Shown here piece by piece: positions 14,369-39,705 of a stretch of 64,000 bases of DNA. The notes beneath the pieces are model-generated. The model saw only the letters and a list, made by a program, of their open reading frames with translations, made no database searches and was not told where the DNA came from. The translations under genes and the position numbers were made by a program. How positions within the stretch are numbered: the stretch's first letter is position 1; every line of letters begins with the position of its first letter. Source of the stretch: Bacilli bacterium (GTDB lineage Bacteria; Bacillota_I; Bacilli_A; RFN20; UBA1709); NCBI GenBank assembly GCA_050949315.1, contig JBMNFL010000001.1, forward strand, positions 826,413 to 890,412, in the 5' to 3' direction.

Positions 14369-15958
14369 ATGAAGTTTAGAAAAATTTTATGTATTTTAAC
14401 ATTTCTCATATTATTAACTGGTTGTGGCCCGATTTTTAGTAGTTATAGTAGTAGTTCAACAAGTAGTGTTTCCACTACTTCTAGTTCTTTATCTTCTACC
14501 AGTTCCAGCGTCAATAATAAAACCTTAACAATTTATGCTATTAACGATTTTCATGGAGCCGTTAAAGAAGCGAATATTGTTAGATTAGGCTCCTATTTGA
14601 AAGAAAAGAAGCAGAGTGAAGATGCCTTACTAATAAACTCTGGTGATTATTGGCAAGGTTCTATCGAATCTAATCATAATCGTGGGAAACTATTGACCGA
14701 TGTTTCTAATTATGTCCAATTTGATTGTTTAACTTTAGGCAATCATGAGTTTGATTGGGGTCAAAAATATATTCGCGAAAATAGATTGCGCAAGGATGAG
14801 GAAAGTTTTTATCAAACACCATTTTTAGCAGCCAATATTTATCGTTATGATTTAGCAACTAAGACCATAGGCGAATATGCTGATCTAGGAGAAAAATATG
14901 TAATAAGGGAACTAAATAATGGTTTAAAAGTAGGGATTATTGGTGTAATTGGTTCTAATCTAACAGCTTCGATAACTTCAACCCATGTTGATGATTTAAT
15001 CTTTGTTGATCCAGTAAATACTATCAAAGAACTATCCGATGAGTTAAGAGTCCAAAAGAGTTGTGATGTTGTTATTGCCAGTTGTCACTGTGATGAAGAT
15101 GATATCAGTGAAGAGTTAACCTTGAAGAGTTCAGTTAGTAATAGACGTTATGTGGATGCTGTATTTTGTGGACATAGTCATCAGGATGAATACAAAGTTG
15201 TTAATGATGTTCCTTATATCCAAACCAATGGTTATGGCAGTTCAATCAGTTATATTAAATTAGAAGAGAAAAGTGATAATAGTTTCCAAACTATTAATTG
15301 TTATAACATCGTTCCCGAAGATTTAATAGTTAATGAAGACGTTAAACTAAAAACACTAGTAAAAAATTATACAGATGTAAGCGATAGTTTAGCTAGTGAA
15401 GTATTATGTACGTTCAGTGGCGGTTTTCACTATTTAGAACAACTACCAAATCTTGTTTGCACAGCTTTGGCTTACTATGCGGTTAAGAATGATATAAGTG
15501 TTGATTATACTATGGTTAATCGTTCGCGTTGTAGTTTGGCTAATCGAAGTATTACGTATGGTGATTTATATCGAGCCCTACCTTTTGATAATGAGGTTCA
15601 GATAGTTGAGGTCTTAGGTCAAGATTTACTTAATTGTGCTAGAAGTAATAATATCTATCGTTTCAATCCCGAGGCTATTAATAAGAGTCAAGTTTATAAA
15701 ATAGCGGTTATTGATTATTTATCTACTCATCGTAATTCAAATCGCGAATATGATAATTTTCCTAATTTAAAAATTATTGGTAGTTTCACTAAAGAAGGAG
15801 AAGATCTTTATAATTATCGCGATATAACAGCCGATTTCTTAAGAAACTTTAGAGAGGAAACTTTAGACAGCAGCTCCTTCAATTCAGATTCAGATTATTA
15901 TAATGTCAACAATTTAGAAAAAAGTGTTGTTTTACCATCCAATCCCTACCTTAGTTAA
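14369..15958 (+). CDS. Lipoprotein 5'-nucleotidase/metallophosphoesterase family protein
   Basis: Signal peptide with lipobox LLTGC followed by a Ser/Thr-rich linker. Calcineurin-like motifs (INDFHG, NSGDYWQGS, GNHEFDWG, CGHSH) and a 5'-nucleotidase C-terminal domain. Confidence 0.8.
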   Translation: MKFRKILCILTFLILLTGCGPIFSSYSSSSTSSVSTTSSSLSSTSSSVNNKTLTIYAINDFHGAVKEANIVRLGSYLKEKKQSEDALLINSGDYWQGSIESNHNRGKLLTDVSNYVQFDCLTLGNHEFDWGQKYIRENRLRKDEESFYQTPFLAANIYRYDLATKTIGEYADLGEKYVIRELNNGLKVGIIGVIGSNLTASITSTHVDDLIFVDPVNTIKELSDELRVQKSCDVVIASCHCDEDDISEELTLKSSVSNRRYVDAVFCGHSHQDEYKVVNDVPYIQTNGYGSSISYIKLEEKSDNSFQTINCYNIVPEDLIVNEDVKLKTLVKNYTDVSDSLASEVLCTFSGGFHYLEQLPNLVCTALAYYAVKNDISVDYTMVNRSRCSLANRSITYGDLYRALPFDNEVQIVEVLGQDLLNCARSNNIYRFNPEAINKSQVYKIAVIDYLSTHRNSNREYDNFPNLKIIGSFTKEGEDLYNYRDITADFLRNFREETLDSSSFNSDSDYYNVNNLEKSVVLPSNPYLS

Positions 15959-16285: not shown

Positions 16286-16315
16286 AAAAGTCCATCTGGA
16301 CTTTTTCTTTTTAAA
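16286..16315 (+). terminator. Intrinsic terminator
   Basis: AAAGTCC-atct-GGACTTT followed by TTTCTTTTT. Confidence 0.65.
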
Positions 16316-16400: not shown

Positions 16401-16462
16401 GTAACATATGTCTTGATAGTTGAGGTCAAAAAAATGTAATAATTTTCAACATATGTTGAAAA
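16401..16462. promoter_or_regulatory. Paired palindromic operator-like sites (GTAACATATGTCTTG and the perfect 20-bp palindrome TTTTCAACATATGTTGAAAA)
   Basis: Two ACATATGT-core palindromes 45 bp apart. They overlap the 5' end and start region of the DUF523-fusion gene. Confidence 0.45.
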
Positions 16463-17571
16463 AACCAAGCCTTCTTAATATAATAAAAAGTATGATAAAA
16501 GCGAAATATTTAGTCAGTGCCTGCTTAGCAGGAAGCAAATGCCGTTACGATGGCAAAAGCAATTATAACAAACGAGTAGCCACCCTTGTTAAAGAGGGCT
16601 TCGGTCTTTTAATTTGCCCTGAAGTTATGGGAGGTTTAAGCATCCCGCGGGTTTGTTGTGAACAACAAGGGAAACGCGTTATTAATAAAGATGGTCTTGA
16701 TAAGACTCTTGAGTTTGAAAAAGGTGCCAAGAAAGTCCTTAAATATGCTAGGCAAAAAGGCATAAAGAAAGCCATTTTAAAAACTAATAGCCCTTCTTGT
16801 GGTATTGAGCAAGTTTATGATGGCAGTTTTAGTCGTAAATTAATCGCTGGGCAAGGTGTTTGTGCCAAACTTTTGGCAGCCAATGGTTTTGAACTCTACA
16901 GTGAAAAAACCAAACCCTATTATGATGTCGTAATTGTGGCGGCTGGTAGTGGAAGGCGAGCGGAATTAGGTTATAACAAAATGTTCTATCACAGTGGTTA
17001 TATGACGGTTATTGAAAGTGCTGTTGAACCTTTTGTCAGTGACTATTTATGCAATCAAGTCATTGTTGTTTGTCAACCCGAAGAACGCGTTTTCTTTACT
17101 TCTTTACTACCCTTTGAAAAGGTTAAATATGCCGATGGTGGGGCTTCGCGAGAGGAAAGTGTATATAATGGGGTCAAATTAGTAAAAAGCCCCAATGTTT
17201 TAATTCATGATGGCGCGCGGGCTTATTTAACAGAAAAGCTTGTTGGGCGCTTATTGAAGGAACTTCAAAAAGGACGTTCTTGTATCGTTCCTTACTTAAT
17301 AAAAACTGATGATCAAAAAGATTATATAAGCGAAGGTAAAGCCATTCAAACACCACAAGCTTTTAAAACGGGGAAACTCTTAAAAGTTTTAGAAAAAGCC
17401 AAGGATAATTTGGCCGATTATCGTGATGAAAGCAGTATTGTTAAGGCGTATAGTCGCATGAAAGTAAATTATATTATCGGCGAGGAAAGCAATTTGAAAT
17501 TGACCGATAAAGAAGATTTAGTAAAATGGGCGGAATGGCAACGCGAAGAGGAAAGAAAAAGTGAAGATTAG
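16420..17571 (+). CDS. Fusion protein: DUF523 (TudS-like [4Fe-4S] thiouracil desulfidase family) + IspD/MobA-like nucleotidyltransferase (cytidylyltransferase) domain
   Basis: N-terminal KYLVSACLAGSKCRYDG, CPEVMGG and PSCG cysteine motifs of DUF523. C-terminal VVIVAAGSGRRAELGYNKMFY... glycosyltransferase-A/IspD-like fold. The true start is uncertain (TTG 16420, ATG 16453 or ATG 16492) and none has a strong RBS. Confidence 0.65.
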   Translation: MRSKKCNNFQHMLKKPSLLNIIKSMIKAKYLVSACLAGSKCRYDGKSNYNKRVATLVKEGFGLLICPEVMGGLSIPRVCCEQQGKRVINKDGLDKTLEFEKGAKKVLKYARQKGIKKAILKTNSPSCGIEQVYDGSFSRKLIAGQGVCAKLLAANGFELYSEKTKPYYDVVIVAAGSGRRAELGYNKMFYHSGYMTVIESAVEPFVSDYLCNQVIVVCQPEERVFFTSLLPFEKVKYADGGASREESVYNGVKLVKSPNVLIHDGARAYLTEKLVGRLLKELQKGRSCIVPYLIKTDDQKDYISEGKAIQTPQAFKTGKLLKVLEKAKDNLADYRDESSIVKAYSRMKVNYIIGEESNLKLTDKEDLVKWAEWQREEERKSED

Positions 17572-18490
17572 AGTTAGTAAAGAAGTTCAAAAGGCTTTAG
17601 ATACTAAGAGTCCCATCGTTGCTTTAGAATCAACGATTATTTCGCATGGTATGCCTTATCCCGAAAATATTAAAACGGCCCTAAAGGTGGAAGAAGAAAT
17701 TAGAAAAAATGGCGCAATTCCAGCAACTATTGCTGTTTTAGATGGCGAATGCGTAATTGGTCTTAGTTCTAAAGAAATAAAAGCCTTTGGTCAAAGAAAG
17801 GATCTTTTAAAGGTTAGCCGTCGAGATTTAGCCTATGTCGTAGCCAAAAAATTAAGTGGGGGAACAACGGTAGCTGCCACTTTATTTTTAGCCGAAAAAG
17901 TGGGCATTAAAGTGTTTGTAACGGGAGGCATTGGCGGAGTTCATCGTGGTGCCCAAACAAGTTTTGATATCTCAGCCGATTTAGATGAATTGGCTAACAG
18001 TTCACTGACTCTTATTTGTGCGGGAGCTAAAGCCATTTTAGATTTACCCTTAACTTTGGAATATTTAGAGACAAAAGGTGTCGCGGTTTATGGTTATAAA
18101 ACAACTAAACTTCCGGCTTTTTATAGTTCAGATAGTCCTTACAAGGTTGATTATAAACTGGATAGTCCTGAAGAAATCGCCTTGGTAATGGCAAGTAAAG
18201 AAGCTTTAAAGATTAAGGGCGGACTTTTAATTGCTAATCCTTTACCAGATGCTTATTCCTGTGACTATGAAGAGATGGAAAGATATATTAAAAAGGCTTT
18301 GGTGAGTTTAGAAAAAGAAGGGATTTATGGTAAAGAAACAACACCCTATCTTTTAACTAAAATAGCCGAGTTAAGTGGTGGTAAGAGTTTAGAAAGCAAT
18401 ATTGCTTTAATTATCAATAATGCCCAGTTAGGCGCCAAGATTGCTTGTGCCTACTTTAAATTACAGAAAGAAGGTGACCACGATGGTTAG
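17561..18490 (+). CDS. psuG: Pseudouridine-5'-phosphate glycosidase
   Basis: Strong similarity to the indigoidine-synthase-A-like PsuG family (ALESTIISHGMPYP..., GGIGGVHRG). GTG start after RBS GAGGAAAG. Confidence 0.85.
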   Translation: MKIRVSKEVQKALDTKSPIVALESTIISHGMPYPENIKTALKVEEEIRKNGAIPATIAVLDGECVIGLSSKEIKAFGQRKDLLKVSRRDLAYVVAKKLSGGTTVAATLFLAEKVGIKVFVTGGIGGVHRGAQTSFDISADLDELANSSLTLICAGAKAILDLPLTLEYLETKGVAVYGYKTTKLPAFYSSDSPYKVDYKLDSPEEIALVMASKEALKIKGGLLIANPLPDAYSCDYEEMERYIKKALVSLEKEGIYGKETTPYLLTKIAELSGGKSLESNIALIINNAQLGAKIACAYFKLQKEGDHDG

Positions 18491-19007
18491 AGTTCGTTCT
18501 AATATCCTTTTTAAGGATTATGTGAATTACGTTTTTATGGCTTTAAAAAAGAAAAAAATCATTTTAGTTGCGATGATTGTTTGCGCTGCTGCCATAGTTT
18601 TTTTGGCCATCAATTTAATTATTAATGCGACAAAAGGCAATTTGCAATTTATTAATTATTTACCTTTATTTGTTATTGTGGCCTTATTAATCTTTTATTT
18701 TGGTTTATTTTACGGAATGACATCAAAACAATATCGTAGAGGCAAACTTTCTTTCCAAGAAGAGAGCGATTATATCTTTTTGAACAATAAATTCGTAATT
18801 GCTAGAGCGGGAACCGATAGTGGTTATGATATTTTTTATAATTCAATTATTGAAATTATTGAAACTAAGAAACGCCTTTATTTTTTCGTTGCTGACAATA
18901 AATCTTTTATGATAAAAAAAGAAAATTTCATCAGTGGAGACATTGTCAAATTAAGATCCTTGCTTACTGAACAGTGTAAAACAGCTAAGAAACGGTTGAA
19001 AAAGTAG
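18483..19007 (+). CDS. YcxB-like small membrane protein (hypothetical)
   Basis: Two N-terminal TM helices. ATG 18483 follows a GAAGGTGA RBS. Confidence 0.5.
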   Translation: MVRVRSNILFKDYVNYVFMALKKKKIILVAMIVCAAAIVFLAINLIINATKGNLQFINYLPLFVIVALLIFYFGLFYGMTSKQYRRGKLSFQEESDYIFLNNKFVIARAGTDSGYDIFYNSIIEIIETKKRLYFFVADNKSFMIKKENFISGDIVKLRSLLTEQCKTAKKRLKK

Positions 19008-19016
19008 GTGAACTTT

Positions 19017-20096
19017 ATGATTGGGGAAAAGGAAAAAATCTTTTTAGCAGAAATCTTTGTTAAGGACATCAACAATCATTTTCTATTTGATGTTTTAGAA
19101 AACTACATTTTAGCTAAACCCGAAAATGTAGCGCTTATTTCGCAACTTTTTTCCTGTCCAATCGATAAAATTGGAACAAGTCAAGTAATCTACTTACTCA
19201 GTAAAGTCGTAGTTGCCATCCACCGTGCCAATAAGTTAATGATGAGTGCAAATGAAGAAAAGAACGCCTTAAAATCTGAAACATATAAAGAAGAATTAGC
19301 CAGTGAAACAATGGAACAAGCCCGCATTGCCCCTTTAAATTTACAGGGCTTAGAAAACACCAACACTTTCTTAAATGAGCCCTATGTGGCACCCGCCTTT
19401 ATTTATTCTAATATTATTGTTCATGCTATCGTGGACAATCGTGATTTATCTTTAAAGGAAATAAAGAAAAATAAAGTGACCATCAATCTTATTTATGAAG
19501 CTTGTAAATCGGTAATTTCCATTATGGTTTTGTTCCAACTAGGTGCCCATTCCCAAGCGATTACAGTCTATCGCAATCTCTTAGAGCAGATGGTCAAATT
19601 GAAGATCATAGAGTTATATCCTGAAACCCGAGCATCCTATTGCCGTTTTTGTGATTATAATGTCGCCTATCAAAATGGCCGGCCCTCAAAACAGTTTTTA
19701 AAAGAGCTTGAAGAAAAGAAAATTCGTAAAGCCTGGACTCAAAACTTTTTGATGTATGGTTGGTTAGATGCTATCGACACTTACAATCACAACTATAGTT
19801 TTAAGTCAGCGACTGACTTATTTAGCGACGGCCCCAACATTTATAAACTCTATGAATACGCTAGTCGTTTCACTCATTCCATTCACATTGGTTTAGAGTA
19901 TAATTGGGAAAATTTAAAATATTATTTTTTGATCAATACTTTAAGTCTCTTCCGCTTTGTGGCGGACACTTATCGAAAATATACGAAAAATAAAGAAGAA
20001 ATCGTCAATGGTATCAATATTTATGATTTAATGGTTAAAAATGGCGATCGCTTACAAAAAATAGTTTCTTATTTAAGTACAACACAATTCGCTTAA
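19017..20096 (+). CDS. Hypothetical protein
   Basis: ATG 19017 lies 7 nt after an AGGTGA RBS. No recognisable domain. Confidence 0.5.
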   Translation: MIGEKEKIFLAEIFVKDINNHFLFDVLENYILAKPENVALISQLFSCPIDKIGTSQVIYLLSKVVVAIHRANKLMMSANEEKNALKSETYKEELASETMEQARIAPLNLQGLENTNTFLNEPYVAPAFIYSNIIVHAIVDNRDLSLKEIKKNKVTINLIYEACKSVISIMVLFQLGAHSQAITVYRNLLEQMVKLKIIELYPETRASYCRFCDYNVAYQNGRPSKQFLKELEEKKIRKAWTQNFLMYGWLDAIDTYNHNYSFKSATDLFSDGPNIYKLYEYASRFTHSIHIGLEYNWENLKYYFLINTLSLFRFVADTYRKYTKNKEEIVNGINIYDLMVKNGDRLQKIVSYLSTTQFA

Positions 20097-20134
20097 GATA
20101 TGGTACAATGTAAAACGTTGAGGGGTTGAAAGAA

Positions 20135-20533
20135 ATGCGCGACGAAAAAGTTATAGCCATGCAAAAAGTTGATAACGCAAATTTTGAGATGAAAATTTAT
20201 GTCATCAATTTTGGAGCCCCGGTTTACAAAAGAAAATATCGTTATTTACCAACGACAATTGAAGTGGATTATACGCCTTTAAAAGAAGGAAAACGCTTGA
20301 GTTTTTCTATTAGAGGTTGGAGTGAAGACTGTTTTAAAAAGAGAATGCACTTAGGTGGTTATGCGACAGGGACAACATCTTTTCCCTTAAAAAAGCGCTT
20401 TGTCATCAAAGTGCCTTGTGATTTAGTTCATGAAGTTCAGAAAATCATTTTTTTGGTTGAGGTTTATAGCAATTTGATAACACATAAAGGCATCAAAAGA
20501 GAGTTTACAATTCGGCATAAAATAGAAGACTAG
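20135..20533 (+). CDS. Hypothetical protein
   Basis: GAGGGG RBS 9 nt upstream of ATG 20135. TGgTACAAT extended -10 upstream. Confidence 0.45.
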   Translation: MRDEKVIAMQKVDNANFEMKIYVINFGAPVYKRKYRYLPTTIEVDYTPLKEGKRLSFSIRGWSEDCFKKRMHLGGYATGTTSFPLKKRFVIKVPCDLVHEVQKIIFLVEVYSNLITHKGIKREFTIRHKIED

Positions 20534-20555
20534 CTAAAAGCCAGGCGTTTTCTAA

Positions 20556-22193
<1,638 letters not shown>

Positions 22194-22195
22194 AA

Positions 22196-22540
22196 ATGGA
22201 AAAGAAGAAACACTTGTATATCCTTTGGACTAATCCAGATCCTTTGACAGCGAAGTTAATGGTAATGATGTATGCGACCAATAGTCTTCTAAGAGAATGG
22301 TGGGAAGAGGTTACCGTTTGTATTTGGGGTGCGACCACTAAATTGGTTGCGGAGAATTTAGAAATCCAAGCCGAAGTTTTAAAAGCCCAGAAAGCTGGTG
22401 TTAAGTTTGAGGCTTGTATTGCCTGTGCTAGAGAACTTGGCGTGATTGAGGATTTAGAAAAATTAGGTGTTAAGGTCTTTTCTTGGGGCCCAGAATTAAC
22501 AGAACGTTTAAAAAATGATGACAAACTAATCACCGTTTAG
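22196..22540 (+). CDS. DsrE/DsrF-like family protein
   Basis: Small peroxiredoxin/DsrE-like fold with a conserved Cys (ACIACA). RBS AAAGGAG. Confidence 0.55.
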   Translation: MEKKKHLYILWTNPDPLTAKLMVMMYATNSLLREWWEEVTVCIWGATTKLVAENLEIQAEVLKAQKAGVKFEACIACARELGVIEDLEKLGVKVFSWGPELTERLKNDDKLITV

Positions 22541-22586
22541 TTATAATAATCATTGTTTAGTTGCAAGTTATTTAAGAGGAGGAAAA

Positions 22587-23105
22587 ATGGAAAAGAAATT
22601 AGAAGACTATGTATTAACCATTCCTGATTTTCCCGAGCCGGGCACGATGTTTAGGGACATCACTTCGGTACTCCAAAGCTCCGAAGGTCTAAATTTAGCC
22701 ATTAAGGAATTGGAGAAAGTTGTTAAGAACTTAGATTTTGATCTAGTTGCTGGAACGGAGTCGCGCGGCTTTATTTTTGGTATGCCTATCGCCTACAATC
22801 TGCGCAAGCCTTTTATTCCCGTTCGCAAAAAGGGAAAATTACCTCGCGAAACTTTAGCCATTGATTATAATTTAGAATATGGTAAAGCCACTTTAGAGAT
22901 TCATAAAGATGCGATTCTTAAGGGACAAAGAGTTGTTTTAATTGATGATCTTATCGCTACAGGAGGCACCTTAGCGGCGGCCATTAAACTGATTGAAAAA
23001 TTAGGAGGCCTCGTCGTTGCGGTAGTGGTTTTAATGGAATTAGAAAGCATGCATGGTCGCAGAGCCCTTAAAAATTATCCTTTATATTCTATTCTTAAAT
23101 ATTAA
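22587..23105 (+). CDS. apt: Adenine phosphoribosyltransferase
   Basis: PRPP-binding motif VLIDDLIATGGT. RBS GAGGAGG. Confidence 0.9.
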   Translation: MEKKLEDYVLTIPDFPEPGTMFRDITSVLQSSEGLNLAIKELEKVVKNLDFDLVAGTESRGFIFGMPIAYNLRKPFIPVRKKGKLPRETLAIDYNLEYGKATLEIHKDAILKGQRVVLIDDLIATGGTLAAAIKLIEKLGGLVVAVVVLMELESMHGRRALKNYPLYSILKY

Positions 23106-24605: not shown

Positions 24606-24682
24606 CGGGGTGTAGCGCAGCTTGGTAGCGCGTTTGGTTCGGGACCAAAAGGCCGCGAGTTCGAATCTCGCCACTCCGACCA
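24606..24682 (+). tRNA. tRNA-Pro (anticodon CGG)
   Basis: Manual fold:
- acceptor CGGGGTG/CACTCCG (one G-U);
- D-arm GCGC-AGCTTGGTA-GCGC;
- anticodon arm TTTGG-TTCGGGA-CCAAA;
- T-arm GCGAG-TTCGAAT-CTCGC;
- encoded CCA.
Paralog of the tRNA at 14178. Confidence 0.8.
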
Positions 24683-24692
24683 ATTAAGAAAA

Positions 24693-24720
24693 GAAGTCTA
24701 GAAAAAACTAGACTTTTTTG
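24693..24720 (+). terminator. Intrinsic terminator after tRNA-Pro(CGG)
   Basis: Perfect AAGTCTAG-aaaaaa-CTAGACTT stem followed by TTTTTT. Confidence 0.75.
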
Positions 24721-24852
24721 AATAATTTTAAAGAAAGAAAGCGAAATAAAAACAAGGCTAACGCAGAAAAATGCGGAATCCGCAAAAATATTAAATAGAG
24801 AAACTAGACTTTTATCTATTTTAAAAGGTAAAATTAAAAGGAGGTTTAAAAG

Positions 24853-25710
24853 ATGAAATTTATCAACGCAATCACAACGATTAATAAAGTGTTTCCTAAC
24901 GGAGTTTTTAATTTAGAGAAATGGAAAGAATATATCCATTTTTATTTACCAGATAAGAGCCACCTTTTCTTAGAAGACATGCAAGAAGTCTTATCTAAGG
25001 GTTTTAGTTATGATAAAGACTATCTTCCCTTATTTCAAAGGGTTTATGAGGATAGCAAAACGCGTTTAGAAATTGTAAAGAATTTTGAATCAATCACTAC
25101 GGGTTTAAATGAAAAGATTCAACAAACATTTAAACGAAGCATTGAGGCCACCATCATGCTTTATCTAGGTCTTGGTAATGGGGCGGGGTGGGCCTTAGAA
25201 ATTGACGACAAGGCTTATGTTCTTTTAGGGATTGAAAAAATTATGGAATTAAACTGGGGTGATAAAAAAACTTTAACTAGTTTAATTAATCATGAATTAG
25301 GACATCTTTATCAAGCACAGTATGGTGTTTTAGCAAGAACTTTTAAAAAGCCTAGTTCGCACTTCCTTTGGCAACTATTTACTGAGGGGGTGGCCATGTA
25401 TTTTGAACAGACATTGCTTAATGATTATGATTATTTTCATCAGGATAAAGATGGCTGGTTAAGTTGGTGTGAACAAAATCAAAAAAGCATCAAAGAAGAC
25501 TTTGCTAAAGATTTAGAAAGTATGAGTTTTTCTAATCAACGTTATTTTGGTGATTGGGTTTATTATCAGGGTAAAAGTGATGTGGGTTACTATCTAGGTG
25601 CGCGCTTTGTTCAGTTCATCTGTCGCAAATTTTTATTTGCGGATATTTTAAGATTTTCTCTAAAACAGGTGCAAAAAGAGTTCAATTGTTTCATAAAAGC
25701 CGATGAATAA
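24853..25710 (+). CDS. DUF2268-like putative Zn-dependent protease (HExxH)
   Basis: HELGH zinc-binding motif (INHELGHLYQ). RBS AAAGGAGG. Confidence 0.55.
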   Translation: MKFINAITTINKVFPNGVFNLEKWKEYIHFYLPDKSHLFLEDMQEVLSKGFSYDKDYLPLFQRVYEDSKTRLEIVKNFESITTGLNEKIQQTFKRSIEATIMLYLGLGNGAGWALEIDDKAYVLLGIEKIMELNWGDKKTLTSLINHELGHLYQAQYGVLARTFKKPSSHFLWQLFTEGVAMYFEQTLLNDYDYFHQDKDGWLSWCEQNQKSIKEDFAKDLESMSFSNQRYFGDWVYYQGKSDVGYYLGARFVQFICRKFLFADILRFSLKQVQKEFNCFIKADE

Positions 25711-25795
25711 TAATCAAAAAAGGTGCTAAAAATCAAGGAATTTAGTAAAAAAAGCAAAAAAAATAAAAAAAAGTGAAAAATTTTTAAAAAAAGGT

Positions 25796-25824
25796 TTGCA
25801 ATCTCTAAAAATATATGTTTTAAT
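25796..25824 (+). promoter_or_regulatory. sigma70 promoter (TTGCAA-17-TGtTTTAAT) in a poly(A)-rich region
   Basis: Good -35, 17-bp spacer and extended -10. Drives a ~160-nt structured leader upstream of gene 25988. Confidence 0.55.
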
Positions 25825-25867
25825 ATGCTCGGCAAAGCTATGGAAACATAGTGACGCAAAGCTATAG

Positions 25868-25930
25868 GGCCTCAAATGGTAGCCAGTTGCACGAAAGGTC
25901 GACAATTGGTTAATATTTGAGGCCTTTTAG
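25868..25930 (+). terminator. Leader (attenuator-like) intrinsic terminator upstream of gene 25988
   Basis: 10-bp perfect stem GGCCTCAAAT/ATTTGAGGCC around an inner imperfect hairpin (CCAGTTG...CAATTGG), followed by TTTTAGTTT. Preceded by a direct repeat GCAAAGCTAT(G/A)G x2 and a GNRA-capped mini-hairpin CTATGgaaaCATAG. Confidence 0.5.
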
Positions 25931-25987
25931 TTTCTAAGGAGGGAAGAAGTTTAACAACAAAACACCAAAACCTTAGAAAAAGCCAGA

Positions 25988-26755
25988 ATGGCAAGACAAC
26001 TTGGTCTTTCCAAAATAAGTGAGGTGATAGGTATTAAAACAAGTATTATAGCTAAGTTCCAAGCACTGATCTTACGTAGAGTGTTTGTAACTAGAGCACT
26101 AGCAATAGTCTCTGGCATACTTGGTTTAACAATCGCCCTAACTTACTATGGAATAAACGTTGGAAACTTTGTCATCAGTGTTGAAGGGAATTATGTTGCT
26201 TCAATTGCTCTAACGGTCGATGAGAATAAAGAAGATCTCAGATCGACTCTGATTGCGGATAATCAAAGAGACATACTCGACGCCGATTATTCCTTTATCC
26301 CAAGTACCGTAACCGAGGGATTAGGCAACAAATACTCCGAAAGCGCTCGCTACTACGCCTATTCGTTCTATCTAGTGAACGTAGGGACAGTAGCCGTTAA
26401 CTACACGATGGAATTCAATCTAGTAAGAGCTAATAAGCAACTAGACTCCATCCTAAGAGTGATGATAGTTAAAGATGAACAAGAAACAATTTACGCCAAG
26501 GCCAGAGAAACCGAAAGCCATTATGGCGAACCGGAACCCGTAATTGTTGGACGGGCCGACAACATCATCGGTTATACAACCCCCTTCATTGAAGATCAAA
26601 CTAAAGCAATTATTCGCGAAACCTACTATGATTTTCAAGAAAATGAATCCCATCGTTATACAGTGGTCATGTGGTTGGATGGCTGGGATGCTGAACAAGT
26701 AGACGAGATGAAAGGTGCCGCCTTACAAACGGAAATCAAATTCACAATTTTGTAA
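25988..26755 (+). CDS. Hypothetical membrane-anchored (signal-anchor) secreted protein, co-transcribed with a TasA-like gene
   Basis: N-terminal hydrophobic helix (ALAIVSGILGLTIALTYYGIN), then a soluble domain. The nearest GGAGGG is 45 nt upstream, so the start is uncertain. Confidence 0.5.
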   Translation: MARQLGLSKISEVIGIKTSIIAKFQALILRRVFVTRALAIVSGILGLTIALTYYGINVGNFVISVEGNYVASIALTVDENKEDLRSTLIADNQRDILDADYSFIPSTVTEGLGNKYSESARYYAYSFYLVNVGTVAVNYTMEFNLVRANKQLDSILRVMIVKDEQETIYAKARETESHYGEPEPVIVGRADNIIGYTTPFIEDQTKAIIRETYYDFQENESHRYTVVMWLDGWDAEQVDEMKGAALQTEIKFTIL

Positions 26756-26777
26756 ATGAAAGGAAAAGGAAAAAATT

Positions 26778-27557
26778 ATGAAACTATCTAAAAAATTATT
26801 TGCAGCCGCTGCCACATTAGGCTTAGCTGTCGCTGCCACTGTCGGGTCGACTTATGCTTGGTTCTCTATGAACACAACTGTTACTGCTACAGGTATGCAG
26901 GTAACTGCAAAGTCCGATAACACATTCTTGCTCATCAGTGCAACTAATACAACAGCAGCTAATATTCAAACTGAAGGTGCAATAACTGTTGCATTGACCG
27001 TAACCGATGAAGAATCTAAAGTATACCCATCAAAACCGATGGAAGAGAGTGAAGTTGGCGCAGGCAATTTGTTTGAAACCGGTACTGCTGTAACCGATAC
27101 AGCAACCGCTGCTGTTCCTGCAAACTGGTACACTGCAAATAGTTCTGATCCTGCATCAAGTACAATGGATACAAACAGTGCAAATCCTTTGGGATCATTT
27201 GCAGGTTATGTTATCACAAAAACAGTATATCTTACTGTAGCAGAGGGAGCAAATGATGTTAATAATCTCAAAGTTACTCCCACTATTACAGCAAAGGACA
27301 GCAAAACAATCGATGCAGCTAAAATCCTTGTTATAACAAGCGATGGTGGTTTCGCAACGTTGACATCCACAATGAGTGGTACTAGCATAGATATTAAAGG
27401 TGTTAATACAAACCTGTCTGATGAAACCGTTCTTACTGTAAACATTTACATATACTATGACGGAAGCGATGCATCTGTTAATACAAACAATGTGGCAAAT
27501 CTTGACGGTGCAACCATAGACCTCGCATTTAATGTTGATGCTGTTCCTGCTACTTGA
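26778..27557 (+). CDS. TasA/camelysin (peptidase M73)-like secreted protein with a SipW-cognate-type signal peptide
   Basis: N-terminus MKLSKKLFAAAATLGLAVAATVGSTYAWFS matches the ...vGGgTyAyFsD SipW-type motif of the TasA/CalY family. Ser/Thr/Asn/Ala-rich beta-rich body. Confidence 0.6.
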   Translation: MKLSKKLFAAAATLGLAVAATVGSTYAWFSMNTTVTATGMQVTAKSDNTFLLISATNTTAANIQTEGAITVALTVTDEESKVYPSKPMEESEVGAGNLFETGTAVTDTATAAVPANWYTANSSDPASSTMDTNSANPLGSFAGYVITKTVYLTVAEGANDVNNLKVTPTITAKDSKTIDAAKILVITSDGGFATLTSTMSGTSIDIKGVNTNLSDETVLTVNIYIYYDGSDASVNTNNVANLDGATIDLAFNVDAVPAT

Positions 27558-27628
27558 TTTAGAAAAACAAAATATTACATCATACTAAGTTGTTGACATA
27601 AATCTCAAAACCACATATCTTAACTCCA

Positions 27629-27666
27629 CCCCGTGCTTGTAGTAACAGGCACGGGGTAATTTTTAT
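27629..27666 (+). terminator. Strong intrinsic terminator at the end of the low-GC block
   Basis: CCCCGTGC-12 nt loop-GCACGGGG followed by TAATTTTTA. Confidence 0.7.
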
Positions 27667-27756
27667 GCAAACGATAGATCCAAACTGGGCCACGGAAAAC
27701 GATGGGTGCATGACATACAACAAAGTGACACCGACACCAACGGATAGAGTACAATA

Positions 27757-29065
27757 AAGTTCGCAATTTCGAGAAGGTATAGAAAAGCCATTGGGACTCC
27801 TTTAAAATGAATGGTGTCAAGACATTCAAAAAGGAGTTGGTCCCAATGACTCAAGGAAAGAATAACACAGATCTTACGGAATTGCTACTGAAATGTATGG
27901 CGGAGCCCGACCCGATGCTCAGTATGCTGGAATGGCTCTGCGCTCAACTGATGGAGGCGGAGGTTTCCGGCCTTGTGGGGGCGGAAAAGAATGCGCACAA
28001 TCCGTCTCGAAGTGACTACCGCTGCGGATATCGTCCCCGGAGGCTGGATACTCGCGTAGGGACGATGTATCTCATGGTGCCAAAGCTGCGCAGCCATGGA
28101 TATATCCCGTTCTTTGTCACTGAACGCAAACGCAGCGAGGCGGCGCTGGTACAGGTTATTCAGGAGGCATTCGTGCAGGGCGTGTCCACACGGAAGATGG
28201 AAAAGTTGGCTCACAGTCTGGGGATAGAGAACCTCTCCCGCAGTCAGGTCAGTGAGATGACAAAAGGGCTCAATGAACAGGTACAGGAATTTCGCAACCG
28301 TTCTCTGACGGATACTCGTTATCCTGTCATTTGGACGGATGCCCTGTACGAAAAAGTCCGTATGGATGGCCGTGTCGTCAGCATGGCGGTGATGGTTGTC
28401 TGCGGCGTCAACGAGCAAGGGCACAGGGACATTCTCGCCGTGGAGCCGATGCTGGACGAATCCAAAGAGAGCTATTCCCAGTTGTTTCAAAGTCTTTTGG
28501 ATCGCGGCTTGAAAACACCGCTGCTGGTGGTTTCCGATGCGAACAAAGGGCTGATTGCCGCCATCCGAGAAAGTTTTCCCGGCGCATCCTGGCAACGCTG
28601 CAAAGTGCATTTCATGCGAAATATTCTGGCCCATATACCGCAGAAAGAAAAAGAATCCTTTGCGGTCCAACTGAAAGAAATCTGGCTGGCGCCTTCCGTC
28701 CAATTAGCGCGACAGCGCGCAAAACAGTTGTCGGAGCAATATGGGAAGCGGTTTCCCAAAGCAATCGAGCTTCTGGAAGACGGGCTGGAGGACTCACTGG
28801 CTTTCTATGCATTCCCCGAGCTTGATGCCCGTAAAATCTCATCGACCAATATGCTGGAACGGCTGAACAAGGAAATCCGGCGCAGAACCAACGTCGTCGG
28901 GATATTCCCAAACAAAGATTCCTATCTGCGGTTGGTTACAACATATCTCATGGAATACGCTGAAGACTGGTCCGTTTCCAGAGCATATTTGAATCCCAAA
29001 TCGATTCAGACACTTCTGCTAAGCGCAGCTTAATTCATTTCGTGGAGTCCCCAAATTGCGAACTT
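27757..29065 (+). mobile_element. IS256-family insertion sequence (~1.3 kb)
   Basis: 13-bp terminal inverted repeats AAGTTCGCAATTT (27757-27769) / AAATTGCGAACTT (29053-29065). Each end also has a GGGACTCC / GGAGTCCC sub-terminal repeat. A single transposase ORF lies inside. Confidence 0.7.
27846..29033 (+). CDS. IS256-family (mutator-type) transposase
   Basis: Typical IS256 transposase sequence (MTQGKNNTDLTELL...DANKGLIAAI...WQRCKVHFMRN...). ATG 27846 after an AAGGAG RBS. Confidence 0.85.
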   Translation: MTQGKNNTDLTELLLKCMAEPDPMLSMLEWLCAQLMEAEVSGLVGAEKNAHNPSRSDYRCGYRPRRLDTRVGTMYLMVPKLRSHGYIPFFVTERKRSEAALVQVIQEAFVQGVSTRKMEKLAHSLGIENLSRSQVSEMTKGLNEQVQEFRNRSLTDTRYPVIWTDALYEKVRMDGRVVSMAVMVVCGVNEQGHRDILAVEPMLDESKESYSQLFQSLLDRGLKTPLLVVSDANKGLIAAIRESFPGASWQRCKVHFMRNILAHIPQKEKESFAVQLKEIWLAPSVQLARQRAKQLSEQYGKRFPKAIELLEDGLEDSLAFYAFPELDARKISSTNMLERLNKEIRRRTNVVGIFPNKDSYLRLVTTYLMEYAEDWSVSRAYLNPKSIQTLLLSAA

Positions 29066-30757: not shown

Positions 30758-33700
30758 TCAAACCTCCTCGCTTTTTTCTATTATTTGAACAAACAGTTCG
30801 GCGATTTGCGGGTCGAACTGTGTTCCTGATCCATTCTTAATAACATCAAGAGCAGCCTGTTTGCGATCCTTTAAGGGAAAATCGCCTCTGTTAAGTACGC
30901 GGTCGTAGGTTTCAGTAACAGCAATGATCCTTGACAACAGAGGAATTTGCTCTCCCTTAAGCCCTCTCGGATATCCCTTTCCATCCCATCTTTCATGATG
31001 GCCATAAACGTATTCTGCCAGGTCGAGTGTGTCATCAAAAAGATTCAAAATTCGGTATCCAACCACAGAATGCTGCTGCATTTTTTCACGCTCATCAGCC
31101 GATAAAGTCTCCTTATTTAGGACAGCTTCATCCAGCACAATTTTACCGATATCGTGTAGATAACCCGCCCTGCTTAATTTGCTGACTTCAGTATCAGGGA
31201 GATGCAGAGCCGTGCCTAATTTTGAGCACAACTCACTTACATCAACCGAGTGCTGTTTTTCTTTTGGATTCCTCGTGTATAAAGTCTCAATAATCGTGCC
31301 AATAATTTCTTTATTGATGGACTTACGATTCATCGTTTTATCCATATACATGGCGTTTTCTGCGTTTGCCATGATCTCATCAAGCAGCTGGTCTGGGCTT
31401 CGTTTCGTATCAAGACCAAGAGCAATACTGCTCTTGATGGCCTTAACGCGGGCGTCGGCAAACCCGGATTTAATCCTGGCAAGAATTTTCTCAGCATTTT
31501 CTTTGGTTGTGTTGGGTAGAAGAATGATGAATTCGTCACCTCCGACGCGAGCGACTACATCATTCTGCCTGCAAACCTGCAGCAGTATTTCAGACGATTT
31601 TTTAATTAGCTCGTCGCCAGCTCTATGTCCAAATATATCATTGGTCATCTTCAAACCATTGATATCAGCAAAGATGACAGATAGCGGAAGATTGTCCGGA
31701 TTGTCAATTTTTGCTCGGTTGTCCTCAAAGCATTTTCTGTTGTGCAGCCCGGCCAAGGTATCGTAACAGTTCAGATACTGGATCTCAGCTTCTTTCTGTT
31801 TTCGTTCGCTTATATCCATAAAAGTTACAACAGCGCCGGTTATTTCACCGTTTTTATTCTGGGGATATGAATAATATTCCACGTCAAAAGAAGTACCGTC
31901 AGCACGCCAGAATACTTCATCCTCTACGTGGGAACCTTCCCCTTTGATAAATGCTTTGAAAATACTGCAGTCATCAATGGGGAAGGGGTTACCATCTCTG
32001 CGGGTGTGATGAATCTGCCGGTGCATATTCTTTCCTAGTAATTCTTCCTGATCACGATATCCCAGCATTTCAATACAGCTTTTATTACAGAAAGTGCAGT
32101 TGCCATTCAAGTCAATGCCGTAAATGGCCTCTGCGGCTGTATCCAATATCAACTGAAGTTCGTCTTTACTCTCCTCCAATTGAAAATTCGCAATATGAAG
32201 CTCCTGGGTACGTTTCTGCACGTTAAACTCCAGGTTTTCTATAAACGATTGCATTTTGTCGGCAACCTTATTAAAGCTGTTTGATATCTGGCCAATTTCG
32301 TCATTTCGGATAATATCAACTCTTTTAGACAGGTTGCCGGAAGATAATTCATCAGATACCTGCAACAGGTTTTTCATTGGCCTTTTGCTTTTCAAAAACT
32401 CGAGCGCGTCTTCTTCATTAAGCGGCTTGCTGAACAGATATCCCTGTATCCTATCACAGTTGTGTTCTTGCAAATACTGTAACTGGCATTCGTGTTCGAC
32501 CCCTTCAGCAATTGTGCAGTGCCCAAGCTTATGTGACATCGAAATAATATCGCTTGTTATTGCTTTACTCAGGTCTGCATCTAACAACTTATCAATAAAA
32601 TACTTGTCAATTTTTAAGCAGTCGACGCTCAGCTCTTTTTCTCTGGCTAGGGAGGAATAACCAGTTCCAAAGTCATCTATAGCTATGTGAAGTCCGGTTT
32701 CCCTCAGTTTCTCGATAATGCTATTAACGGCTTCATAATCGGAGGCAAAGACCGATTCGGTAATCTCAATGCCAATATTCCGGGGATTAACCTGCATCTC
32801 GCTCATTAATTCAAACAGCCTGCTTGTAAAATCAGGTTTTAATAGCTGAATAGCAGAAATATTGATTGAAACGCCGACTTCATCATATCCACTCGCATTA
32901 AGCTTATTAAGGAAATGAAACGCGTTGACAATCACTTTTTCACCAATCGGTATAATGAGCTTTGTCTCTTCGGCAATCGGTATAAATTCAACCGGTGACA
33001 CCAGTCCGTGTTTTTCTGTTTTTAACCGTGCTAGCGCTTCAAACCCACAAACAGCATTTGTCTGTAGCTCAACAATCGGTTGGTATTGCAAAAACAACTC
33101 ATCATTAGTGCTTTCAAGAACTACGCCCGTAAGTGCTTCCCGGATGTCTCTTTCGCGGTTTATCTCAGCCTCCAGTTCCTCATTATAAAAACAAGCCTCA
33201 AAGTCTTTTTGTGAAACAGCAATAGATCTTTCTGACGCAATCAAGAGCTTTCTTAAGAGTAAATCCACATCGATTTCATCAACGTCCTGCTCAATTTCGA
33301 ATATCCCAATCCCGCCGCCTATTCGTTCAGTTGCAAATAAGGCTTCTAATGCTTCTGCTATGATATCGCTAAATTCAACCAGGTCGTTCTTGTCTTTGTA
33401 ATCAACAAGATAGAAGACAAACCGATTTTCATAGGTTTGGAACAGTAAGCGGGTATCGGAGCAATGCTGACTCAGTGTTTCAGCAGCCATTTTTATAAGG
33501 TTCTGTGTATAGTGAAACCCATAATTAGCGGTTAATAACTCAACTGTACTCAAATTGATACTGATGACTGCTCTTTTTAATCCATCCTTTTTCTTGATAT
33601 CATTATTCAGAAGCGCATCCAAATAATCACGATTATACAAGCCTGTCCATTTGTCATGCTCATTTATGTATCTGAGATGGTTCTCCATCTCTTTTCTGTC

Positions 33701-35263: not shown

Positions 35264-35312
35264 TATGAATCCTCCTTCTTTAACCCACACCCACTCCAGG
35301 CTTTTTTTGACT

Positions 35313-35876
35313 TTATTTTAGTTCCTCAAGCAGTTTCCCAAGTAATTTAGAAAACCTGTCTTGTAATGGCACTATTTCATCTTCCTTTTCTTCATTAAAA
35401 GCTTTCTGTAATAACGCAGCTACAGCCTGCAGTGATTTAGCACCGATACTTCCGGAACTGCTCTTAACCTTATGTACGATTTGTGTAGCTTCAGTGTATC
35501 TTTTTTCACGTACTGCCGCTTCAAGCTTTTCCAAAGTATCTTGATTCTCGTTGCGGTATTCAATTAGCACCTGATTATACAATTCTTCGTTGCCGCCCAT
35601 ATTTTTAAAGCCTAGCTGCCGGTCAAGGACAGCTGTATCCGGTTCTATATTAGGTTCATTTTCAAGGATAATATCTTTTATGGTTTGAATAAAGTGATCG
35701 GGATTAATGGGCTTACTGATGTAATGAAATATTCCGCTTTGCTCGCACTTGTCCCGAACACCTAAAATCACATCCGCTGTCATTGCTATAATAGGGACTT
35801 GGCTTGAAATCGATCGGATATTCTCCGCCGCTTCATAGCCGTTCATGACAGGCATGTGCAAATCCATCAATATCAA
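35313..35876 (-). CDS. Truncated receiver (REC) domain fused to an Hpt phosphotransfer domain; likely N-terminally disrupted
   Basis: MILMDLHMPVMNG...IIAMTADV is the middle and C-terminal part of a receiver; it lacks the beta1 DD pocket. C-terminal Hpt motif HKVKSSSGSIGA. The REC reading frame is closed by a TGA upstream. Confidence 0.5.
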   Translation of the reverse strand: MILMDLHMPVMNGYEAAENIRSISSQVPIIAMTADVILGVRDKCEQSGIFHYISKPINPDHFIQTIKDIILENEPNIEPDTAVLDRQLGFKNMGGNEELYNQVLIEYRNENQDTLEKLEAAVREKRYTEATQIVHKVKSSSGSIGAKSLQAVAALLQKAFNEEKEDEIVPLQDRFSKLLGKLLEELK

Positions 35877-36061: not shown

Positions 36062-36303
36062 TTTGTGGTACCTTCTTTCCCGCTGCCCGTGGCAGCGGCA
36101 TCATCGGGAATTGTTTCCATGATGTCTGTTATATCGCACTGAAGAACATCGCATATCTTTAACAGAACAGCGGTTGTAACATTCTCGTCTTTTCCGAGCT
36201 TCGCAAGTGAGGACGAGCTGATACCCGCTGCTTGTCGTAGCTCAGTTTTCTTCATGTTTCTGTCAATTAACAACTTCCACAGCTTCTTATAACTCATCTT
36301 CAT
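36058..36303 (-). CDS. XRE-family helix-turn-helix transcriptional regulator
   Basis: HTH_XRE signature (KTELRQAAGISSSSLAKLGKDENVTTAVLLKICDVLQC). Confidence 0.75.
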   Translation of the reverse strand: MKMSYKKLWKLLIDRNMKKTELRQAAGISSSSLAKLGKDENVTTAVLLKICDVLQCDITDIMETIPDDAAATGSGKEGTTK

Positions 36304-37945: not shown

Positions 37946-38112
37946 GAATATACCTCTCCTTTCTCATTGATGTCTATTGCGTTAAGCGCATATAGGCAGT
38001 CCATAACCGACAAAAAATCCGTTGCGTCGGAAAGCGAAGGCTTTATCCGAAGATAAAGGTCTTTCACTGCGATTGGATTATCTTGTACCTCTTTGAGCAC
38101 CGTTGGAATCAT
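37936..38112 (-). CDS. Small protein (58 aa) between the HNH-like and ATPase genes (possible middle component)
   Basis: ATG at 38112 (minus). The stop overlaps the ATPase start. No clear RBS, so the call is tentative. The longer listed 106-aa ORF overlaps the upstream gene. Confidence 0.3.
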   Translation of the reverse strand: MIPTVLKEVQDNPIAVKDLYLRIKPSLSDATDFLSVMDCLYALNAIDINEKGEVYSCL

Positions 38113-38143
38113 CGCCAAGGTGCTGTTTTTATATGAATACAGC

Positions 38144-39445: not shown

Positions 39446-39705
39446 ATATTATGTTTGAAAAAAGGATTAAATATTTCCTTGCGCATTCATTCCATAGCCC
39501 ACCATCAAATGGTGCGTTCCCTGATCTGGAACGGCTCAACGCTATGCGACGGTAGAACTTAATACACTCAGCTGACTATTGAGCAGGAAGCTGCATTCCG
39601 AAACGGAGCAATCTGTGAAGGACTGCGGTATGGTATCTTATTGCCATTTTTCAGCCAGCTGCTGCAGACCTCCGTTTCGAGACAACGAAAACGGAGGTCA
39701 TTTTA

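Follow-up and report, generated by a model that had tools for sequence, protein, structure and literature searches.

TudS holds its [4Fe-4S] cluster through three ligands (Cys10, Cys43 and Cys104), leaving one iron free; Glu45, Ser101 and Ser103 are its catalytic residues, Tyr18 and Pro102 its stacking residues, and Arg17 contacts the phosphate of 4-thio-uridine monophosphate (4-thio-UMP), the preferred substrate (Commun Biol 2023, PMC10611767). RudS, in which TudS is fused to DUF1722, is a tRNA 4-thiouridine (s4U) de-modifying enzyme (NAR 2024, PMC11417400). In IspD, the cytidylyltransferase of the methylerythritol phosphate (MEP) pathway, the beta-arm forms a dimer contact and reportedly holds the site where MEP binds (PMC11770629). 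Here we analyze a locus in which relatives of these enzymes come together. It lies in a 64,000-nt stretch of the genome of a Bacilli bacterium (contig JBMNFL010000001.1, positions 826,413 to 890,412), hereafter the window, and consists of a gene encoding a TudS (DUF523) domain fused to an IspD-family domain, followed by psuG, the gene for pseudouridine-5'-phosphate glycosidase. An earlier note on this DNA had described the fusion as a DUF523 domain joined to an IspD/MobA-like nucleotidyltransferase, and had proposed that it acts with psuG in a salvage route for modified uridines, behind paired palindromes taken to be operators. On our analysis, the chances are even that a modified-uridine recycling operon, conserved in an uncultured, low-GC clade of Bacilli, has its promoter-proximal part at this locus.

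A TudS domain fused to an IspD-family domain

The N-terminal half of the fusion matches the 2-thiouracil desulfurase family PF04463 (E 1e-41, 142.7 bits for a cut-off of 34.7, profile positions 2-140 of 141), and its residues 3-148 match TudS in PDB entry 6Z92 (E 2e-30). The cysteines that ligate the TudS cluster correspond to Cys11, Cys42 and Cys103, which are invariant in 12/12 fusions. Glu44, Ser100, Pro101 and Tyr19 are likewise invariant across the fusions, and Ser102 reaches a conservation of at least 90%. At position 18, the equivalent of TudS Arg17, the window protein has Arg and the other fusions have Arg or Lys. Judging from these residues, the N-terminal domain looks like an intact, catalytically competent [4Fe-4S] desulfidase module acting on thio-uridine or 4-thio-UMP.

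The C-terminal half matches the IspD family PF01128 (E 4e-36), with residues 144-347 of the fusion aligning to the Bacillus subtilis IspD of PDB entry 5DDT (E 1e-24). Modelled with AlphaFold from an alignment of the 12 fused sequences, the protein folds into one compact two-domain structure with a predicted local distance difference test (pLDDT) of 91.4 and a predicted template modelling (TM) score (pTM) of 0.89; searched with Foldseek, the model aligned to TudS 6Z96 with a TM score of 0.79 and 43% identity, and to IspD 5HS2 with a TM score of 0.83 on the target. The TarI model NF001183 gave 42.7 bits for a cut-off of 166, and the TarI match in the PDB, 4JIS, reached E 3e-8. By sequence and predicted structure the domain is clearly IspD-like, and not MobA- or TarI-like, the best matches of both kinds being true IspDs.

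The fusion itself, PF04463 followed by PF01128, is real, being represented by 13 fused sequences from independent assemblies. It is also rare: the architecture was found in 12 clusters at 90% identity among 5.8 billion proteins, these being 46-99% identical to the window protein, and in 2 representatives among 1.84 billion 50%-identity representatives, while a metagenome scan added a single further fusion, L128, carried by an 877-kb contig. The fused proteins are 345-360 amino acids (aa) long in the fusion sub-clade. In a neighbour-joining tree of IspD domains, which is distance-based and serves as a rough guide only, the fusions form one clade.

DUF523/TudS domains are also found fused to other partners, namely an NAD synthase (NadE), a type I phosphomannose isomerase (PMI), an HD domain and a GNAT-like domain (P0082, P0045, P0014; L097 6240-7232). 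DUF523 is therefore a promiscuous fusion partner, and a fusion by itself proves little. The L097 protein had been considered as a second, independent TudS-IspD fusion, with a match that reached residue 202; it proved to be DUF523 joined to the GNAT-like domain and was set aside.

Conserved linkage to psuG

The product of psuG matches PF04227 over its full length (E 4e-126, 420.5 bits) and Escherichia coli PsuG (4GIJ) over 299 residues (E 5e-101). It retains the catalytic Lys166 of the E. coli enzyme, the residue changed to Ala in the K166A structure 4GIM, within the motif CAGAKAILD. The adjacency of the two genes, which overlap by 11 nt, is thus as the earlier note had it, and it extends beyond the window. 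Of the fusion lineages, those of the window, P0002/L128, P0004 and P0011 have psuG directly after the fusion gene and that of P0009 does not; overall, the adjacency holds in five of the six distinct fusion lineages and in six unfused relatives, lineage counts that depend on which contigs were retrievable. At the 79 listed stand-alone DUF523 loci, which span many phyla, neither psuG nor an IspD homologue was found within 10 kb (0/79). The conservation that the earlier note had asked about was accordingly found for psuG. It was not found for psuK, since the PfkB kinase was absent from the 64-kb window and from the vicinity of every fusion; it lies directly upstream of psuG in 6/6 unfused relatives.

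These six lineages (L022/L117, a metagenome-assembled genome labelled "Bacilli bacterium", L122/L102, L132, L134, L136 and L137) hold the same genes in unfused form: tudS, an ispD-like gene (hereafter ispD*), the PfkB kinase gene (psuK) and psuG, then optional members, the operon of L132 being without tudS. The optional genes after psuG occur in varied combinations and encode a U32 protein of 770-780 aa, a DUF975 membrane protein and a YcxB-like protein, the last of these being found after psuG in L001, L004, L128, L134, L136 and L137; in L137 the operon runs on into a uracil-permease-like gene. Carriers of the cluster include GCA_964367815.1, GCA_964367975.1, GCA_002317215.1, JAQUTO01, the 877-kb contig Ga0265299_10000001, TONG22-1 scaffold_1 (276 kb) and LIAN20-1 scaffold_1 (199 kb). 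The flanks vary from lineage to lineage (hydrogenase, MatE, dus-lysS, RNR), showing that the cluster is more stable than its surroundings.

For the PfkB kinase, the best NCBIfam model is pseudouridine kinase, and for the U32 protein it is the prephenate-dependent tRNA U34 hydroxylase TrhP (236 bits for a cut-off of 534); both matches are below cut-off, so that we treat them as leads and not as assignments. The U32 protein may act on a further modified pyrimidine. As for the modified-uridine salvage route put forward earlier, psuK, psuG, the TrhP-like U32 gene and, in one case, the uracil permease speak for it; the IspD-like domain may or may not take part in it.

A perfect 16-bp palindrome, AAAGCAATATTGCTTT, lies at positions 18393-18408, in the 3' end of psuG and just before the start of the ycxB-like gene.

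The IspD-like half belongs to a short-arm subfamily

To describe the IspD-like half we used E. coli (Eco) IspD numbering, fixed by exact match to 1I52. The equivalents of Eco R20, K27, D106, R109, T165 and K213 are invariant in 60/60 sequences of a subfamily that includes the fusions and that we call short-arm for the reason given below, and so are those of G82 and S88, which together with R20, K27 and K213 make up the catalytic and cytidine triphosphate (CTP)-binding set. D106, R109 and T165 are reportedly the residues to which Richard and colleagues assigned same-chain MEP-binding roles in 2001 (structure 1INI). On this conservation, the C-terminal domain looks like a catalytically intact CTP-dependent cytidylyltransferase.

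What sets the subfamily apart is the beta-arm. The spacing between the HDxxR and QTPQ motifs is 55-57 residues in canonical IspDs, compared with 45-48 in the fusions and 47-53 in their unfused and stand-alone relatives, the stretch that is gone being most of the beta-arm, which is about 8-11 residues shorter than the canonical one. A comparison of 168 canonical with 60 short-arm sequences revealed a switch at three positions, two of which, 140 and 157, are those where the canonical arm contributes Thr140' and Arg157' to the MEP site of the partner subunit. Position 140 is Thr or Ser in 167/168 canonical sequences, Ala or Tyr in the short-arm set and Tyr or Phe in the fusions. Position 157 is Arg in 167/168 canonical sequences, mostly deleted in the short-arm set and deleted in 13/13 fusions. 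Finally, position 189 is Thr in 153/168 canonical sequences, Lys or Arg in 52/60 short-arm sequences and Arg in 13/13 fusions; the basic residue at this position may be a cis replacement for the lost trans Arg157.

The same division is seen with the IspD equivalog model TIGR00453, whose cut-off is 181.3 bits: the window domain scores 147.5 bits and all short-arm members score 123-171 bits, compared with 200-215 bits for the canonical IspDs of Erysipelotrichaceae, the nearest named IspD relatives of the fusion-bearing uncultured Bacilli. In the neighbour-joining tree the short-arm sequences form a single clade (52/230 leaves) in three parts, made up of the cluster-linked unfused genes, the fusions and stand-alone genes. 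The stand-alone genes have no psu neighbours and follow rpmE (P0043) or clpC (P0021). As short arms thus occur in housekeeping settings away from psu too, they do not depend on psu linkage. The ispD gene of L126/L118, which lies beside a nucleoside phosphorylase gene, comFA and secA, was considered as a further member and rejected, as it scores 208 bits on TIGR00453 and has a canonical arm.

The position of the short-arm genes is informative as well. The order (hslO)-dus-lysS-(RNR)-[tudS]-ispD* is found in L132, L134 and L136, and clpC-ispD* in L014, while the P0021 stand-alone gene that follows clpC does so behind the same RNR gene. This position matches that of ispD in the B. subtilis order dusB-lysS ... 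clpC-radA-disA-yacL-ispD-ispF. The short-arm gene occupies the ancestral ispD position of Bacilli.

Role of the IspD-like domain

Our preferred reading, to which we give neither better nor worse than even chances, is that of a modified-uridine salvage operon in which the lineage's remodelled, working MEP cytidylyltransferase, i.e. its housekeeping IspD, is embedded. The ancestral operon would have comprised tudS, ispD*, psuK and psuG (plus, optionally, the U32, DUF975 and ycxB genes), one sub-clade having fused tudS to ispD* and lost psuK. RNA turnover and scavenging would supply pseudouridine, 4-thiouridine and their 5'-phosphates. PsuK, where present, would phosphorylate pseudouridine; PsuG would then turn pseudouridine-5'-phosphate into uracil and ribose-5-phosphate, and the TudS domain, with its three-Cys [4Fe-4S] cluster, would desulfurise 4-thio-UMP to UMP or thiouracil to uracil. 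What these enzymes release would pass to pyrimidine salvage, pyrG and apt being located downstream in the window. The IspD-like domain would still make cytidine diphosphate (CDP)-methylerythritol for isoprenoid synthesis, its fusion and its place in the operon reflecting tight co-expression and ancestry and not a common pathway.

Several observations weigh against an embedded housekeeping IspD. In every cluster-bearing lineage, ispD* sits tightly between tudS and psuK, the genes overlapping or lying less than 40 nt apart. Stable placement of this kind amid changing flanks, together with a permanent fusion in one clade, is usually a sign that genes are linked in function or physically. The whole short-arm set falls below the TIGR00453 cut-off, and Thr140 and Arg157 are lost from the arm that is reported to hold the MEP site (PMC11770629). 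No ispF or other MEP gene was seen beside any short-arm ispD*; the canonical, REESV-type IspD genes from the same metagenome scan adjoin ispF. The Pfam lists for about 250 kb (an estimate) of clade loci contained no MEP or mevalonate genes, in a sample too small to inform. The earlier note had itself considered that the domain could be a generic IspD acting in isoprenoid synthesis, and the answer to this is divided: the ancestral position and the housekeeping relatives argue for it, the failed equivalog cut-off and the remodelled pocket against it.

The main rival, possible though in our estimate unlikely, is that the short-arm enzyme has given up MEP for a new substrate, in other words that it is a CTP-dependent nucleotidyltransferase of modified-uridine or ribose-phosphate salvage, working in a complex with TudS that the fusion has made permanent. 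The substrate might be a phospho-sugar or nucleotide coming from PsuK, PsuG or TudS, e.g. ribose-5-phosphate, a pentitol phosphate or a modified nucleoside monophosphate. The genetic linkage favors this proposal: tudS-ispD*-psuK-psuG recurs in at least 7 lineages with varied flanks, its genes closely spaced and in part overlapping, and is fused in a further clade; psuG is not near stand-alone DUF523 genes elsewhere; and the neighbours are all related to uridine or RNA modification (psuK, psuG, the TrhP-like U32 gene and the uracil permease). The proposal also accommodates the score below the IspD equivalog cut-off, the lack of MEP genes near the loci and the compactness of the two-domain AlphaFold model (pTM 0.89), and the loss of the trans residues Thr140 and Arg157 combined with the gain of a cis Lys or Arg at position 189 points to a rebuilt substrate pocket.

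However, no known catabolic reaction of pseudouridine or thiouridine requires a cytidylyltransferase, and we found no paper linking them. The stand-alone members show the same short-arm traits without psu neighbours, the gene is at the ancestral ispD position, and all the cis catalytic and MEP-binding residues are kept. Moreover, mixtures of unrelated housekeeping genes are common in the operons of small genomes, and DUF523 has many kinds of fusion partner. We are similarly doubtful, and a shade more so, that the short-arm proteins constitute a new class of CTP-dependent nucleotidyltransferases working with TudS, PsuK and PsuG to recycle the modified uridines that RNA turnover yields, and that they are not MEP-pathway enzymes.

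Far less probable is a TarI/Bcs1-type synthase of a CDP-alditol (e.g. CDP-ribitol) for a wall polymer or capsule, paired with a short-chain dehydrogenase/reductase (SDR). What brings it to mind is a 290-aa SDR encoded at the palindromic promoter described below in L001/L128, with a 43%-identical SDR at the same place in L004. Bcs1 of Haemophilus influenzae unites an IspD-like domain and an SDR reductase, and the window contains GT2 and Wzy_C genes. The ribitol-5-phosphate cytidylyltransferase model nevertheless gave 42.7 bits for the 166 needed, TarI structures match far more weakly than IspD, the SDR is generic (PRK06197-type) and has no counterpart in the window or in any unfused operon, and no TarJ/TarL-type genes are adjacent.

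Origin of the fusion

The unfused genes suggest how the fusion came about. In L022, L134 and L137, the last 11 nt of tudS, ATGA[GA]ATATAG, are also the first 11 nt of ispD*, and so encode the end of one protein (...NEI*) and the beginning of the other (M[RK]YSV...). In the fused proteins, the TudS C-terminal "YSEE" is followed by a linker of about 5 residues and then by "YD(A/V)(I/V)(I/V)V", the equivalent of the N-terminal "YSV(V/I)I" of the unfused ispD product. As the 11-nt overlap aligns with the fusion junction, a single frameshift would yield the fusion, and we infer that it arose by one frameshift within the tudS/ispD overlap.

By the same token, one base error in this overlap could mimic a fusion, but a sequencing or assembly artefact, or a decaying pseudogene, is effectively refuted, and to our minds scarcely conceivable, given 13 fused sequences (42-99% identity) from separate assemblies (ENA, JGI, NCBI, Logan) that have a short, conserved linker in common and group in one clade, the invariance of the catalytic residues of both halves across the fusions, and the confident structural model (pLDDT 91).

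Promoter and palindrome

The best sigma-70-like promoter of the region (Table 1) has the boxes TTGAAA and TATAAT, which match the consensus at 11/12 positions, and its −35 box is the right arm of the perfect 20-bp palindrome TTTTCAACATATGTTGAAAA, which the earlier note had located correctly. The start codon, ATG 16492, lies 7 nt past the −10 box and has no Shine-Dalgarno (SD) sequence, so that the fusion mRNA is probably leaderless. Transcription probably starts at this promoter, and the palindrome may also be bound by a dimeric regulator.

The same arrangement exists in the P0002/L128 lineage (56% protein identity), which has TTTTCAAC-CCTA-GTTGAAAA, 17 nt, TATAAT, 6 nt and ATG. The arms are at the same position in L001/L002/L003 and L128, that is, in only one lineage other than the window's, and the palindrome core ACATATGT is not conserved. 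They were not seen in L004, L007, L009 or any unfused operon, the other fused and unfused lineages having unrelated upstream sequence and normal SD sites.

In shuffles of the 25%-GC spacer, a perfect palindrome of at least 14 nt arose in 4.7% of cases; the 20-mer, rarer still by extrapolation from these shuffles, is probably not a chance occurrence. The core TTCAACNNNNGTTGAA, with at most one mismatch, is found twice in the window for 0.20 expected, a number reached by 2/100 shuffles.

In some fusion lineages a generic SDR gene (PRK06197-type, 290 aa) is divergent from the fusion gene, at L001 7054-7932 (-) and L004 7040-7912 (-), the two products being 43% identical. In L001/L128, this gene shares the palindromic −35 region with the fusion, the left arm being placed as the SDR −35 box. 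The window has no divergent SDR gene and no −10 box on the opposite strand, and the SDR gene is absent from all unfused operons. That the window keeps a perfect left arm although it has neither SDR gene nor −10 box may be a sign that a protein binds there, or that the divergent gene was lost in the recent past. The palindrome is therefore a possible binding site for a dimeric protein, a pair of back-to-back −35 boxes, or both; no regulator gene is adjacent to it. We compared it with two known boxes and made no assignment: NrdR boxes are out of register with the palindrome, and CGAAC-N4-GTTCG, the LexA box of Firmicutes, is alike in geometry but differs at the critical G of each half-site.

The notion of paired operators fared less well. 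The related site said to lie 45 bp upstream of the palindrome does exist, as a copy of the 9-mer AACATATGT; a lone 9-mer repeat in such an AT-rich spacer is not significant by itself, and in L016/L017, contigs of the same species, the copy stands 44 nt from the palindrome, compared with 45 in the window. Having no counterpart in L001 or L128, nor anywhere outside the species, and shifting in spacing within it, this copy was rejected as a conserved partner operator. A single operator is possible, as the arms TTTTCAAC and GTTGAAAA are kept in one other lineage, the right arm being the −35 box as well.

Elsewhere in the window, TTCAACCCATGTTGAT at 14977-14992 (+), inside the 5'-nucleotidase-like gene, has 1 mismatch to the palindrome arms, probably by chance.

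Gene surroundings and other features of the window

Table 1. Genes and sites at and around the fusion locus (window coordinates, except where a contig is named).
Feature	Position	Strand	Remarks
5'-nucleotidase/metallophosphoesterase-type lipoprotein	14369-15958	+	upstream; also in L001 and L128
lone FakA-like_M open reading frame (ORF), 83 aa	16019-16270	+	PF21645, E 1.5e-18; own terminator
terminator-like hairpin closing the upstream unit	16286-16305	+	8-bp stem, then T-run (consensus match)
9-mer AACATATGT, upstream copy	16403-16411		directly before TTGATA hexamer; 45 nt upstream of palindrome
fusion ORF	16420-17571	+	true start ATG 16492, giving 359 aa; same start used by gene callers on near-identical contigs and in all orthologues
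perfect 20-bp palindrome TTTTCAACATATGTTGAAAA = TTTTCAAC-ATAT-GTTGAAAA	16443-16462		exact match
best sigma-70-like promoter	16456-16484	+	−35 TTGAAA 16456-16461, 17-nt spacer, −10 TATAAT 16479-16484
TudS/DUF523 domain of fusion, aa 1-140	16492-16911	+	PF04463 match
IspD-family cytidylyltransferase domain of fusion, short-arm subfamily, aa 141-359	16912-17571	+	PF01128 match
psuG	17561-18490	+	GTG start; overlaps last 11 nt of fusion
YcxB-like small membrane/bPH protein	18483-19007	+	PF14317; recurrent final member of conserved cluster
DUF5677, 135-aa ORF, pyrG (CTP synthase), DsrE-like gene, apt	19008-23105	+	downstream, co-directional
U32-family protein directly after psuG	L122 1720-4062 (-); L136 8514-10862; L137 6422-8737		three unfused operons

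The hairpin upstream of the fusion gene ends the FakA-like_M unit, and the fusion operon is thus a separate transcription unit. An 85-aa counterpart of the FakA-like_M ORF stands at the equivalent place in L001, a 56%-related lineage; the ORF may encode a functional mini-protein and not be a gene fragment. Further upstream, the 5'-nucleotidase-like lipoprotein, so assigned by its sequence, provides a context for nucleotide scavenging. Downstream of the cluster, the product of apt passes its family cut-off. In tblastn comparisons, DUF5677, the 135-aa ORF, pyrG, apt and the upstream 5'-nucleotidase gene, the five genes compared, were common to the closest fusion lineage only; the downstream genes are a nucleotide-metabolism neighbourhood and not members of the core cluster.

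The remainder of the window holds features of other kinds. A cyclic di-GMP-I (c-di-GMP-I) riboswitch at 25821-25894 (+) scores 57 bits for a gathering score of 35, and the two ORFs downstream of it (25988-26755 and 26778-27557) have no Pfam match. A 1510-aa signalling protein encoded at 30758-35290 (-) combines REC, several PAS, EAL, HAMP, GGDEF and HD-GYP-type HD domains, and is followed by a small REC-Hpt protein (35313-35876). A likely ABC-3C-type defence pair at 36287-39313 (-) consists of a DUF2326 protein (36287-37945) and a protein with a CTD11 (ABC-three-component) domain (38144-39313). From 39500 to 64000 extends a prophage-like block of 52% GC, compared with 37% in the left 29 kb; it encodes an SNF2 helicase, a family A DNA polymerase, an NrS-1-like primase-polymerase fused to a DNA methylase, and a large terminase, and contains a DUF2800 RNA (39502-39661, 113 bits). 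The same-species 150-kb contig L016 ends just past the Wzy_C gene, near 24.5 kb, where the window goes on with a tRNA-Pro(CGG) gene (24606-24682), the riboswitch, a Mutator-family transposase gene (27807-29033), the defence genes and the prophage; the region 24606-29033 is probably strain-variable.

Significance and comparison with known systems

Each of the domain families is already known. In the papers searched we found no account of the fusion, of the operon, or of an armless IspD subfamily with the T140/R157/T189 switch, nor did any of them connect IspD-like proteins with TudS or PsuG. The operon puts the TudS desulfidase beside pseudouridine catabolism, which supports a role of TudS in recycling nucleotides released from RNA, and it nominates the U32, DUF975 and YcxB proteins as further players. 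The short-arm proteins matter either way: if they have remained IspDs, current understanding of the MEP site has to be revised, a relevant point since drugs and herbicides are aimed at IspD; otherwise there is a new enzyme activity to discover, and, should they form a new class acting with TudS, PsuK and PsuG, pseudouridine/thiouridine salvage would include a cytidylylated intermediate that has never been described. Finally, the 11-nt overlap of tudS and ispD shows a route from translationally coupled neighbours to a stable bifunctional protein.

Compared with known systems, the N-terminal 140 residues share with TudS (6Z92/6Z96; Commun Biol 2023, PMC10611767) the cluster cysteines and the catalytic, phosphate-binding and stacking residues, whereas the joining to an IspD-family domain, inside a psuK/psuG operon, is particular to the present protein; the papers on TudS and RudS (PMC10611767, PMC11417400) mention no IspD-family partner. 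Like RudS, the window protein carries a TudS domain with an extra C-terminal domain; unlike in RudS, this domain is a nucleotidyltransferase (PF01128) and not DUF1722, and nothing suggests tRNA binding.

The second half resembles IspD/YgbP (E. coli 1I52/1INI, B. subtilis 5DDT/5HS2) in its fold, its best sequence match, its same-chain residues and its post-lysS/clpC position, and differs in that it is short-armed, lacks T140 and R157, belongs to a subfamily in which T189 is replaced by Lys/Arg, has no ispF neighbour and is fused to TudS. With the bifunctional IspDF (Campylobacter jejuni 1W55, Helicobacter pylori 8XKF), it has in common the association of an IspD domain with a second enzyme and the fact that the halves do not catalyze consecutive steps; here, however, the partner is N-terminal and is not a MEP-pathway enzyme, and there is no IspF domain. 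Lastly, with respect to E. coli psuK-psuG (yeiC-yeiN), PsuG is a clear orthologue and the unfused relatives likewise have a PfkB kinase gene directly upstream of psuG, whereas the fusion clade is without a nearby psuK and the operon described here adds tudS, the IspD-like gene, and the U32, DUF975 and YcxB genes.

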